DNA from: an uncultured Solirubrobacteraceae bacterium
Lineage (GTDB): Bacteria > Actinomycetota > Thermoleophilia > Solirubrobacterales > Solirubrobacteraceae
Direction of reading: 5' to 3'
Assembly: GCA_963771085.1 (NCBI GenBank)
Contig: CAVYSB010000002.1
Coordinates: forward strand, 448,917-512,916
Length of the DNA stretch: 64,000 nt
The first letter of the stretch is position 1; each line of letters opens with the position of its first letter. The notes under the pieces were generated by a model. It did not search any database. It had not been told where the DNA came from and saw only the letters and a program-made list of their open reading frames with translations. Below, in pieces: positions 51,868 to 54,790 of the stretch. Both the position numbers and the translations under genes were made by a program.

Positions 51868-52284
51868 CTAGTCGGGCGCCTCGATCGAGGCGCCCGCAGA
51901 GCGGGCCGCGATCGCCGCATCGATCTGCGCCCCCACGCTCGGCATCTCCGCGACCACCCTGCGCAGGTCGCGCGCCGTCATCACGATCACGCTCAGCTCG
52001 CTGGCCGCCGTCACCGTGGCGTTGCGGCGCACGTCGCGTACCGCCCCGATCTCGCCCGCGAAGTCGCCCGGGCCAAGCGTCGCCAGCAGCTCGCCCCCGC
52101 GGCTGACCTCCGCGCTGCCCGTGCGGATCAGCAGGAACTCGTGGGCGAAGGCCCCCTCGTGTATCAGCCTGGTGCCTGCCGGGACCGCGATCTCGTCCGT
52201 CACGCTCGCCAGCCGCCGGAGCTCCTGCGGCGAGAGCTCCGCGAACAGTCCCACGGTCTTGAGCTTGGACTCCTCCATCAGCAC
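51868..52284 (-). CDS. stand-alone cyclic-nucleotide-binding domain protein
   Basis: LFAELSPQELRRL...AGTRLIHEGAFAHEFLLI..G.AEV...LGPGDFAGEIG...RNATVTA matches the cNMP-binding (CAP effector) fold. No output domain is present. Confidence 0.8.
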   Translation of the reverse strand: MLMEESKLKTVGLFAELSPQELRRLASVTDEIAVPAGTRLIHEGAFAHEFLLIRTGSAEVSRGGELLATLGPGDFAGEIGAVRDVRRNATVTAASELSVIVMTARDLRRVVAEMPSVGAQIDAAIAARSAGASIEAPD

Positions 52285-52374
52285 CTCACACGCCCGGGAG
52301 CCGCATCGGCGACCCGCCCGGCGCTGACACGGCGCGATTCTACGCGAGGCACATCCCCGCCCGGCGCCCGGCGC

Positions 52375-53865
52375 TCACGGACACGCGACGGCGAGCGCGC
52401 AGCCGCCGCCGGTTTCGCTCGGTCCGCCCGGCGGGCTGCCCGCGGGCTGGCTGGGGGCCGTGGTGGTCGTGGTCGGGGGCGGCGGAGGCGGGGCCTGCGC
52501 AGGCGTGCTAGGCGTGGTGCTCGCCGGAGGCGGCGGCGGGGTCGCCGGGACGGGCGCAGGCGGACTGCTGATGCGGCGCCGCGCCCGCTGGGGGCCGTGA
52601 TGGTGCGACCGGCGCGGTGGCGGGGTGCGCGGCACGCCCGCGAGGGCGAGGGTGCCGTGCGCGGCCGGCGGGGCATCCGGTCCAGTGGAGGTCGGCTGGG
52701 TGGAGCCATGCCCGGCCGTCGCCCGGGCATGGGTGCGGTGCGCGGCGAGCGAGCGCCCGGCGCCGTGGCGCGTCGCCGGCAGCGCACCGGCCGGCGACGG
52801 GGCGAGCGTCTGCAGCGTGAGGTGGCGCTCGGGGGCGATGCTGCCGGCCTGCGTGAGCGCGAGCAGCAGCACGAGCACGCCCAGCGCGGCGGCTGCGGTC
52901 AGCCAGCGCCGGCGGCCCCTGAACCGCGGCGCGCCCGCACCGCTGCGCGTGATCCATGGGACGCCCCGCGCCATTGCCGCAGGGCCCGGCGGACGCGGCG
53001 GATCGCCGACGTGACTCCAGTCGGCACCCACAAGCTGGGCGGCGCGAGCGATCGTGGCGTGGCGCAGCCAGGCCAGCGCCACGATCGGCCCGAGCGCGCG
53101 GTAGGAAACGCCGGCCTCCTCCATCGCCTCGGCGCTCAGCCTGCAGGTCTCGCAGAGGGTGACGTGTGCGCTCAGCCAGTCGAGCTCGTCGCCGCCCGCG
53201 CCCTGGGCGTCCTGCACGCGCGCGAGCAGCGGCAGGGCGCGCTCGCAATCCGGCGAGGCGGGCGCGATCGACGCCAGCGCCCCGCCCCTCACGAGCTCGC
53301 GCAGGCGCAGGCGGGCGCGCGAGATCAGCTGGGCGACCGCGTTGCTGTTGAGGCCGATGATCTGCCCGATCTCCTCGTAGGAGAGCTGCTCGAGCTCCCG
53401 CAGCGCGAGCACCTCGCGCTGGCGCGCGGACAGCTGCGCGTTGGCCGCCCGCACCTGCGCGCGCGTGGCGTCCAGCAGCGCGGCCCGCTCGGGGTCGAGC
53501 GCCAGCTCGCCCGGCTCCGGGCCGCCCGGCTCGAGACGCTCGAGCTGCTCACCCACCGGCTCGACCCGCCTCCTGGCCTCGATCGCGTCATAGCACGCGT
53601 TGCGCGCTGTAGTGAGCGCATATGCGATGAAGTTCAAGTCGCGGCCCTGCAGGGCCGGCAGACGCCGCAGCAGGCGCATGAAGGTCTCCTGGGTCGCTTC
53701 CGCCGCCGCGTCCTCGCTGCCAAGCATCCGCAGGCAGAAGCCGAACACGCGGCGCTCGTGGCGGTCGTAGAGCCGCGCGAACGCGTCCCCGTCGCCCGCG
53801 AGCGCCAGCCTCGCGAGCTCGCGATCGTCGGGTGCGGCGCGGGCGCTTGCGGTTGTGCTCGCCAT
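52375..53865 (-). CDS. ECF sigma factor fused to a ZAS-type anti-sigma domain, a TM helix and a Pro/Thr-rich extracytoplasmic tail
   Basis: Sigma-2 (FARLYDRHERRVFGFCLRMLG..AEATQETF) and sigma-4 (LSARQREVLALRELEQLSYEEIGQIIGLNSNAVAQLISRAR) are followed by C207...H234-x3-C-x2-C241 (encoded near 53143-53166). A TM segment (WLTAAAALGVLVLLLALTQAG, encoded 52846-52905) and a PPPP/TTTT-rich tail follow. All lie in one uninterrupted ORF. Confidence 0.8.
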   Translation of the reverse strand: MASTTASARAAPDDRELARLALAGDGDAFARLYDRHERRVFGFCLRMLGSEDAAAEATQETFMRLLRRLPALQGRDLNFIAYALTTARNACYDAIEARRRVEPVGEQLERLEPGGPEPGELALDPERAALLDATRAQVRAANAQLSARQREVLALRELEQLSYEEIGQIIGLNSNAVAQLISRARLRLRELVRGGALASIAPASPDCERALPLLARVQDAQGAGGDELDWLSAHVTLCETCRLSAEAMEEAGVSYRALGPIVALAWLRHATIARAAQLVGADWSHVGDPPRPPGPAAMARGVPWITRSGAGAPRFRGRRRWLTAAAALGVLVLLLALTQAGSIAPERHLTLQTLAPSPAGALPATRHGAGRSLAAHRTHARATAGHGSTQPTSTGPDAPPAAHGTLALAGVPRTPPPRRSHHHGPQRARRRISSPPAPVPATPPPPPASTTPSTPAQAPPPPPPTTTTTAPSQPAGSPPGGPSETGGGCALAVACP

Positions 53866-54130
53866 GGCCACCTGCTCACGGCGATTCTCCCACGACACGC
53901 CCGCGCGGGCAAGCTGCCGGCCGTCTGCTGGACATCCGCTGGTCCTTTCCCCCGCCGCGCGGGACGGGTGTTCAGTGCTCACGGACCTCCAACCCGCGGG
54001 GCGCCCGATCCTTACGCGGCGTGGCACGCGAATTTTCTTTCCGGCGGGCGTAAGGAAGCGGGCGCCGGCCCGTTGAGGGAACGAAGCGCACAAACCGGGC
54101 AAGCGCCCTCAACACCACAGGAGGCATCCC

Positions 54131-54790
54131 ATGTCACAGCTCCACCCCACAGTCCCCGCCGCCCTCTCGATCATCGCCGTGGCCCTCGGCCCGGCCGCCA
54201 CGGGCGCGCTCGGCGCGAGCAGCCACCACGCCGGCGGGCACCACAGCCACCGCAAACCGTCGCTCGTGGGGCCCCGCGGCGCGACCGGCCCGCGGGGCCC
54301 CATGGGCGCCATCGGCCCTGCCGGCCCCGCGGGCGCGACGGGTGCCACCGGCGCGACCGGCGCGCAGGGCCCGGGCGCAGTCGAGTACACCTACAACTCG
54401 AGCGCGCCGGCGGCCAGCGAACAGAACACGCCGCTCGGTCCCGCCGGCCCGTTCAAGCTGACCGCCAGCTGCGTGCAGCTCGGCCCGACGCTGCTCGTGG
54501 TCGACCTCGGCGCGAGCAACGCGCTCGACGTGGGCATCGACAACGTGCGCACCGAAGCCGATGACGGCAGCCCCACCGAGACCTCGCTCGACAGCTTCAC
54601 GCAGCCCGCCACGAGCACACCGACCACGCTCTTCGGGCTGGCCAGCGACGCAACCGGGACCGAGGAAAGCTACGGCCTGGGTCACATGACGGTGACCTGG
54701 CCCGTGCACGGCGAGCTCGAAGTGTTCGCCCACGTCTCCGAGGGCACGCACGTCTGCCACCTCTCGACCGTCTGGGTGCCCGCATCCTGA
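54131..54790 (+). CDS. secreted collagen-like repeat protein
   Basis: N-terminal hydrophobic segment, a His-rich linker, twelve uninterrupted G-X-Y triplets (GPRGATGPRGPMGAIGPAGPAGATGATGATGAQGPG, encoded 54269-54376), then a C-terminal domain of about 135 aa. A GGAGG SD precedes the ATG. Confidence 0.75.
   Translation: MSQLHPTVPAALSIIAVALGPAATGALGASSHHAGGHHSHRKPSLVGPRGATGPRGPMGAIGPAGPAGATGATGATGAQGPGAVEYTYNSSAPAASEQNTPLGPAGPFKLTASCVQLGPTLLVVDLGASNALDVGIDNVRTEADDGSPTETSLDSFTQPATSTPTTLFGLASDATGTEESYGLGHMTVTWPVHGELEVFAHVSEGTHVCHLSTVWVPAS

Follow-up and report, generated by a model that had tools for sequence, protein, structure and literature searches.

A membrane-tethered ECF sigma factor fused to an anti-sigma-like zinc-finger domain in Thermoleophilia, and its strictly spaced candidate promoter

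How could a sigma factor that carries an anti-sigma-like domain in its own polypeptide be released from it, and which genes would it then transcribe? This question is raised by a stretch of 64,000 nucleotides from an uncultured Solirubrobacteraceae bacterium (contig CAVYSB010000002.1; hereafter the window, i.e., the whole stretch of DNA that was analysed), in which one gene on the minus strand (52375..53865; 496 aa plus stop codon) encodes a sigma factor of the extracytoplasmic function (ECF) type continued by a zinc-finger, anti-sigma-like domain, a transmembrane (TM) helix and a long tail. The architecture is already known in kind from the groups ECF48, ECF52 and ECF53; what is new here is a strictly spaced CGTAA-N18-GTT motif together with a readable candidate regulon. 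A preliminary description of the locus had regarded fused, membrane-anchored ECFs as known but poorly characterised, in agreement with the literature, where ECF48, ECF52 and ECF53 are predicted fusions and SCO4117 is the only zinc-finger-type member touched experimentally, and that only in part, its promoter being uncertain and its activation unresolved (PMC5826349, PMC8999054). In these predicted actinobacterial proteins the step to be explained is the removal of the covalently attached anti-sigma domain, and our literature search returned no paper combining Thermoleophilia with an ECF sigma factor. The preliminary description was silent on the minus strand, the promoter motif and the divergent target gene.

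The one-chain sigma/zinc-finger gene was confirmed as genuine and is no sequencing artefact. As had been proposed, a single uninterrupted open reading frame (ORF) of 496 codons contains sigma-2 and sigma-4, recognised by the Pfam families Sigma70_r2 and Sigma70_r4_2 and by TIGR02937; it runs on the minus strand from the ATG at 53865 to the stop codon at 52375-52377, and the protein starts with MASTTAS. The GC content at third codon positions in the minus-strand frame amounts to 0.93 in the sigma part, 0.92 in the zinc finger, 0.96 in the TM segment and 0.89 in the tail, and such high values in all four segments back the frame along the whole ORF. An ORF of 807 aa on the opposite strand (52141..54564, plus), overlapping the whole gene, was rejected as a high-GC shadow ORF, because codon-position GC favours the minus-strand frame. 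The alternative that separate sigma and anti-sigma genes were joined by a missed stop codon or a frameshift had been raised for the sigma-4/zinc-finger junction (about 53240-53300). This junction is crossed with 0 gaps and no indel by Logan contigs from four independent soil-metagenome runs, for example X2 (52869-53419), X3 (53113-53607) and X4 (52804-53758).

The same conclusion is reached from the relatives of the protein. A protein search gave 526 matches, and the family statistics reported here come from the best 120 of these 526 (121 sequences with the window protein). Nearly all of these 120 homologues are 450-650 aa long and all have the same sigma domains; the homologues carry the zinc motif within the sigma chain, nearly all with a TM segment too, and more than 100 homologues from Solirubrobacterales/Thermoleophilia have sigma domains, zinc finger and TM helix in one chain. 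The 80 related loci belong to Solirubrobacterales, Thermoleophilaceae, Patulibacter, Conexibacter, Paraconexibacter, Baekduia and Svornostia, or are labelled Actinomycetes, Actinomycetota or Thermoleophilia, and as far as seen here the family appears confined to the Thermoleophilia (Actinomycetota). An exhaustive search with the extension domain yielded 259 clusters among 1.84 billion representatives; among the 150 matches listed of these 259, most are placed near residues 190-300 in proteins ~400-600 aa long, a position that points to the fused state as the rule. A word-indexed protein search with the extension profile returned 11 short fragments only. The sole hint at separate genes comes from a few short database proteins beginning in or after sigma-4. 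Nine relevant short entries were inspected, seven of which begin inside sigma-4 and the other two directly after it, and they are therefore read as truncated gene calls rather than as separate anti-sigma genes. Judging from the sequences searched, the extension domain is known essentially only in the fused state, and the probability that the fusion is an assembly or annotation artefact is practically negligible.

The N-terminal 195 residues form a complete sigma-2/sigma-4 ECF core. Sigma-70 region 2 (53566..53772, minus; aa 32-100) matches Pfam PF04542 (Sigma70_r2) with an E-value of 1.7e-16, and region 4 (53296..53457, minus; aa 137-190), a helix-turn-helix with the invariant sequence NAVAQLxSRAR, matches PF08281/PF04545, the Sigma70_r4_2 (PF08281) match covering aa 137-188 with an E-value of 7.8e-13. 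Among the sigma-70 region families of Pfam only these two regions match, which corresponds to the ECF (group 4) layout, and the NCBIfam model of the sigma70-ECF superfamily (TIGR02937) reaches 98.8 bits for a cutoff of 42.9, no equivalog being found at its cutoff in the NCBIfam scan of the protein. The matches of the protein in the PDB, by sequence as well as by fold, are ECF sigma factors, and residues 101-136, which separate sigma-2 from sigma-4, are modelled at low confidence or as disordered by AlphaFold2 (AF2). Sigma-2 also holds an invariant pair of cysteines encoded on the minus strand, C44 (GFCLRML, 53731-53733) and C91 (ARNACYD, 53590-53592); in SigK-type ECFs a conserved sigma-2 cysteine pair is a redox sensor (PMC7826278).

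The core is followed by the zinc-finger, anti-sigma-like domain (53014..53253, minus; aa 205-284). Its four putative zinc ligands were found exactly as the preliminary description had given them, i.e., C207 (53245-53247), H234 (53164-53166), C238 (53152-53154) and C241 (53143-53145), all on the minus strand, with the arrangement H234-VTL-C238-ET-C241 (H-x3-C-x2-C) and with C207 sitting 27 residues before H234. Across the 120 sequences C207, H234 and C238 are invariant and C241 is conserved in at least 90%; HxxxCxxC is present in 120 of the 121 family members, and in the family alignment the ligands are followed by a near-invariant block (aa 247-284). Since the extension of the window protein itself matches no Pfam family, the zinc-finger assignment is drawn from its orthologues: among 26 orthologous extensions, zf-HC2 (PF13490) was matched by 22 (best E-value 7.5e-6), the NCBIfam anti-sigma-E family (NF052368) by 12 and the RsrA model (NCBIfam TIGR03988) by five. 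When the extension profile was compared with PDB sequences, the sole match was RsiW (5wuq_C), marginal at an E-value of 0.024 and aligned on HxxxCxxC. According to the AF2 model, helices span residues 205-218, 225-237 and 239-279 with a predicted local distance difference test (pLDDT) score of mostly 79-95; C207 opens helix 1, H234 closes helix 2, and C238 and C241 open helix 3 (pLDDT 87-95). Structures of zinc-binding anti-sigma (ZAS) domains show the same placement of the zinc ligands on the helices. Hence the motif, the predicted helix topology and the orthologue matches in Pfam and NCBIfam lend indirect support to a ZAS-type anti-sigma domain.

A variable, low-complexity linker, predicted to be cytoplasmic (52906..53013, minus; aa 285-320, 36 aa), connects this domain to the membrane helix; its length and sequence vary among the aligned homologues, pLDDT falls below 50 from aa 292 onward, and it ends in the basic stretch RFRGRRR. 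The single predicted TM helix, WLTAAAALGVLVLLLALTQAG (52843..52905, minus; aa 321-341), which had been recognised from the start, contains the only Kyte-Doolittle 19-mer of the protein with a mean above 1.6 (peak 2.13, at about aa 322). In 117 of the 121 family members a hydrophobic segment follows residue 250, typically ~90 residues past the motif, and 108 of them (out of 121) have exactly one. Because the basic residues precede the helix, the positive-inside rule predicts an N-in/C-out orientation with the sigma core and zinc finger in the cytoplasm and the tail outside. Such a single-pass layout with a cytoplasmic anti-sigma-like domain would be that of RsiW/RseA-type substrates of regulated intramembrane proteolysis.

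The presumed extracytoplasmic tail (52378..52842, minus; aa 342-496) is, as previously estimated, 155 aa long, of low complexity and rich in Pro, Ala, Thr, His and Arg (P 36, A 27, T 20, G 15, S 13, R 12, H 9); no Pfam family was found in aa 301-496 at E-values up to 10. It ends in the tip CALAVACP (52378..52401, minus; aa 489-496), a C-x5-C element conserved within its clade. Among the 120 homologues, C-x-L-A-x-A-C(P) tips occur in 33 and G-[LF]-[IV]-P tips in 31, and tips are conserved within clades although the stalk sequence before them diverges. A database protein 99% identical to the window protein (P0001) differs from it only in the stalk, at aa ~353-361 (APSPAGALPATR versus APTPPGARPATR), and by this comparison the stalk is changing fast even among near-identical strains. 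Tips of other clades read GLIP/GLVP or GTLNPNTPAR. Besides, LAxAC in the tip has a lipobox-like appearance, but is found at the wrong terminus.

Which genes would such a sigma factor transcribe? Aligning the upstream regions of relatives brought out the motif CGTAA-N18-GTT, of which the window holds two copies placed back to back, both with the extended form CGTAAGGA-N15-GTT. The first, CGTAAGGATCGGGCGCCCCGCGGGTT (53991..54016, minus), is the candidate ECF promoter of the sigma gene, its GTT ending 125 nt before the ATG; the second, CGTAAGGAAGCGGGCGCCGGCCCGTT (54049..54074, plus), lies 56 nt before the ATG of a divergent gene for a secreted collagen-like protein (54131..54790, plus; 219 aa), a predicted target. 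In the 64-kb window these two copies, both in the sigma/collagen-like intergenic region, are the only occurrences of CGTAA-N18-GTT, for 0.07 expected. With a position weight matrix built from the other loci, the window being left out, the two sites score 30.8 and 22.3 bits, and the next best site of the window 3.2. The spacer is rigid: of the spacer lengths counted over 767 kb of related loci, N18 is seen 103 times and each of the others from 13 to 23 only 0-6 times.

The distribution of the motif ties it to the sigma gene. In 38 of the 62 evaluable loci the sigma gene has the motif immediately upstream, and in ~19 of the remaining ones the motif stands before a secreted-protein gene that runs in the same direction as the sigma gene and lies just upstream of it. 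Its putative targets other than sigma genes encode proteins with a signal peptide (collagen-like, PKD/Ig-like, YWTD-propeller and small proteins of no known type); there the motif is found mostly ~35-63 nt upstream of the start codon, and a Shine-Dalgarno sequence is usually present. The divergent second copy occurs in exactly those loci that have the collagen-like gene. The motif always points towards the downstream gene, including ~12 loci in which it lies between co-directional genes; the reverse reading, AAC-N18-TTACG as -35 and -10 elements on the other strand, was rejected, as it would fire antisense into the sigma gene in ~12 loci. A spacer of fixed length, an unchanging orientation and the association with the sigma gene agree with an ECF promoter, and CGTAA-N18-GTT is probably the cognate, autoregulated promoter of the fused sigma factor. 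It resembles the GGAAT-N18-GTT form of SigR/SigH promoters. One contig (CAWGZH010000003.1) carries two fused-sigma paralogues in one genome (L017 and L018), with different tips, different neighbouring target genes and the same core promoter motif; the bases directly after CGTAA differ between them (CAC, TTC/TTT) and may carry specificity.

Other elements were recognised between the motif and the coding sequences. A conserved extended -10-like element, TGGGAGAAT (53884..53892, minus), whose hexamer ends 18 nt before the ATG across many relatives, is a possible second promoter element of housekeeping type; it is taken to be non-coding because two relatives have an in-frame stop between TGGGAGAAT and the ATG. 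A scan for sigma-70 consensus promoters and terminators found no sites, and a scan of 52200-54300 against Rfam gave no match. A similar TAGAATCGC occurs at 52334-52342, ~50 nt before the next gene, and AGAATCGC was rejected as a general -10/discriminator motif, not being enriched in the window (3 found for 2.3 expected). The ATG at 53865 is the conserved start among relatives. Several close relatives (L002-L009, L012, L027) have an in-frame upstream ATG ~18-57 nt (mostly 42-57) 3' of CGTAA-N18-GTT, which would prepend 25-35 poorly conserved residues ending in WENRxEQVA. At this position the window reads AGG (53866-53990 region, minus), so that the ATG at 53865 is the best start there and the 5' leader would measure ~118 nt. 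A coding role of WENRxE upstream of the ATG was rejected as a general rule, since in-frame stops interrupt it in L010 and L013 and the window has no start codon there. On the other side, the leaders 3' of the motif (54075-54130, plus, in the window, and in related loci) contain CACAAAC, a short GC hairpin of the CGGGC-N4-GCCCG type and a Shine-Dalgarno sequence, and this leader is common to the collagen-like and other target genes.

The closest described architecture is that of ECF52, represented by SCO4117 of Streptomyces coelicolor, in which the ECF core is followed by zf-HC2, a TM helix and a proline-rich stretch, the group being restricted to Actinobacteria and its release by an unknown protease having been proposed (PMC5826349). 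The window protein is alike in the zinc finger, TM helix and proline-rich extension after the ECF core. However, ECF52 proteins end in the carbohydrate-binding module smart00776 (PMC5826349), whereas the window protein, which lacks such a module, ends in an 8-aa Cys-x5-Cys tip; for this reason it is not to be filed in ECF52 on architecture alone. SCO4117 has two promoters, one with its own putative motif, CSGYN-17-SRHA (PMC5826349), which differs from CGTAA-N18-GTT; here a candidate ECF promoter stands together with the conserved -10-like element. ECF48 and ECF53 are described as C-terminal zinc-finger (probably ZAS) fusions that carry one or two TM helices, can extend over as many as 400 residues and have a predicted proteolytic activation (PMC8999054). 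The window protein fits this description, a likeness of architecture and not a group assignment of its sigma core. The named examples of ECF48 and ECF53 come from Mycolicibacterium and Streptomyces, no member being characterised, while the present family belongs to the Thermoleophilia; like these Actinobacteria-restricted groups (ECF52, ECF48 and ECF53), it lies within the Actinomycetota.

Among two-protein systems, RsiW of Bacillus subtilis (PDB 5WUQ/5WUR) is comparable in having an N-terminal zinc-binding anti-sigma domain, here aligned on HxxxCxxC, one TM helix and an extracytoplasmic part. RsiW is controlled by stepwise proteolysis through PrsW, RasP and then Clp. SigW and RsiW are separate proteins and degradation of RsiW frees SigW, whereas here the sigma factor and the anti-sigma-like domain are covalently linked, so that an extra cut or partial degradation would be needed. 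The same Cys...His-x3-Cys-x2-Cys set, with about the same spacing, is shared by SigR/RsrA (Streptomyces) and SigH/RshA (Mycobacterium) of group ECF12, and SigR/SigH promoters have the same form, a 5-mer followed by N18-GTT, as the motif described here. RsrA and RshA are soluble, separate sensors of thiol oxidation, in contrast to the fused, membrane-anchored protein of the window, the predicted targets of which are secreted. The only fused sigma/anti-sigma protein with proven activation is IutY of Pseudomonas putida (ECF243), which is released by Prc and RseP and becomes constitutive upon truncation (PMC8999054). Its anti-sigma part is of the FecR type, without zinc finger, and serves TonB-dependent cell-surface signalling in a Gram-negative bacterium; unlike ECF243, the window protein, of zinc-finger type, has no match to the FecR family in Pfam.

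From these comparisons, the locus may be read as a one-component, membrane-tethered ECF system. The 195-aa sigma core is continued by an 80-aa helical Cys-His-Cys-Cys domain laid out as in RsiW and RsrA, which would fold back on the core and inhibit it in cis, while the flexible linker and one N-in/C-out TM helix would keep the protein at the membrane and the disordered Pro/Thr/Ala-rich stalk would display the short conserved tip outside the cell. A signal acting on the outside part would lead to trimming of the stalk, then to intramembrane cleavage and finally to removal of the zinc finger, as suggested by RsiW, IutY and the ECF52 model. The freed sigma factor would direct RNA polymerase to CGTAA-N18-GTT promoters, i.e., those of its own gene (positive autoregulation) and of the divergent collagen-like gene, and in relatives the same motif would drive genes for other secreted or surface proteins. 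We consider this reading, which builds on the example of RsiW, on the fused FecR-type IutY, whose release is proven, and on the published ECF52 model, as the probable one, with considerable room for doubt. Several points weigh against it. The window protein (aa 195-300, E-values up to 10) matches neither zf-HC2 nor any other Pfam family, Foldseek found no anti-sigma domain with the isolated extension model (best E-value above 6) and, with the 300-aa model, only sigma chains of poor global superposition. The predicted template modelling (pTM) score of that 300-aa AF2 model is 0.44, and the packing of the zinc finger on sigma-2 and sigma-4 is what we infer. Of the earlier claim of an anti-sigma-type domain, the motif, the predicted helix topology and the orthologue matches stood, but the window protein gave neither the family match nor a Foldseek match to an anti-sigma fold. 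Besides, the anti-sigma domain would stay attached after intramembrane cleavage, calling for the extra step mentioned above, no protease gene adjoins the sigma gene in the neighbourhood inspected, and another sigma factor may be the one that reads the motif.

The latter possibility, that a different sigma factor reads CGTAA-N18-GTT or a transcription factor binds it, its place near the fused sigma gene being incidental, is unlikely. The link between motif and protein is drawn from sequence, and at least one genome has two sigma paralogues with the same core motif (L017 and L018). Yet in most loci the motif goes with the sigma gene itself, it is bipartite with a rigid spacer as ECF promoters are, and it invariably faces the downstream gene, even in the ~12 loci where it lies between co-directional genes; moreover, the DNA-reading helices of the sigma factor are as invariant as the motif. 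The mode of release can be questioned as well. A switch driven by redox or zinc would need no proteolysis: the zinc finger would detach from the core when its ligands are oxidised, as in RsrA/RshA, or when zinc is lost, and the core would work while tethered by the long flexible linker or be released later. Such a switch would be consistent with the family-wide conservation of the C-H-C-C ligands, spaced approximately as in the redox-sensing RsrA (ligands C11/H37/C41/C44), with the RsrA model being touched by 5 of the 26 orthologous extensions, with the two further invariant cysteines of sigma-2 (C44 and C91), with the long, disordered linker between zinc finger and TM helix (36 aa here, longer in several relatives) and with a promoter form like that of SigR/SigH. 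It remains rather improbable, since RsiW, the sole PDB sequence match, is controlled by proteolysis, many ZAS proteins bind zinc structurally without redox sensing, a cytoplasmic signal would hardly account for the conservation of a TM helix and of an extracytoplasmic tip, and the genes predicted to be controlled encode secreted or surface proteins and are not thiol-homeostasis genes.

Finally, the C-terminal extension might be no inhibitor at all; its role could be positive or structural, which has been reported for some ECF41 and ECF42 extensions, or it could be only a membrane-localisation device, the activity being set mainly by transcription of the gene. The missing zf-HC2 and anti-sigma fold matches of the window protein leave room for this idea, cis-inhibition being itself a deduction, and the housekeeping-type -10-like element near the ATG suggests an additional transcriptional control. 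We nonetheless regard it as very unlikely, because the orthologous extensions match anti-sigma models, the ligand topology is that of ZAS domains, a membrane-tied sigma factor would reach most promoters poorly, and the sigma domain of SCO4117 is functional alone (PMC5826349). The Thermoleophilia family is of interest by being large and uniform; its candidate promoter is sharply delimited, and its predicted regulon, situated alongside, is minimal (the sigma gene and one secreted protein). It offers a clean reporter system for cis-inhibition, for the four zinc ligands and for proteolytic release, and a first entry point to the gene regulation of a class of soil bacteria that is abundant but little studied.

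The tip may add a further level to this system. The type of tip co-varies with the type of neighbouring target gene, which may reflect shared ancestry only or may mark a sensor peptide. More speculatively, and with a low probability in our opinion, the tip (CxLAxAC here, GLIP or others elsewhere) would serve for recognition, as a peptide fitted to the secreted protein under control of the sigma factor, in a self-contained feedback loop. The matched protein would be collagen-like here and of PKD or propeller type elsewhere, and the tethered sigma factor would sense the export or assembly of its own surface product, for example by binding it, by exchanging disulfides or by being shielded from a tail-specific protease, and would tune transcription to what it senses. 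If this is true, the strict promoter and the one-gene regulon would make a compact, directly testable model of fused sigma/anti-sigma switching.

In the collagen-like protein itself, a signal peptide and a His-rich stretch are combined with ~12 G-X-Y triplets and, at the C-terminus, a conserved domain of ~135 aa holding two invariant cysteines; its match to Pfam Collagen (E-value 5.6e-5) is under the gathering cut-off, and its gene is kept as divergent neighbour of the sigma gene in 11 related loci. The triplets end in GPG (GPQGPG in most relatives), and a weak similarity to BclA is limited to the collagen region. Directly downstream of the sigma gene, on the same strand, lies a gene for a small protein with a cyclic nucleotide monophosphate (cNMP)-binding domain (51868-52284, minus), which is probably not part of the system, since it is missing from the syntenic locus L001/L002. 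The downstream side also holds panB/panD/panC, and past the collagen-like gene come those of a nitroreductase and a hexapeptide transferase and uvrA.

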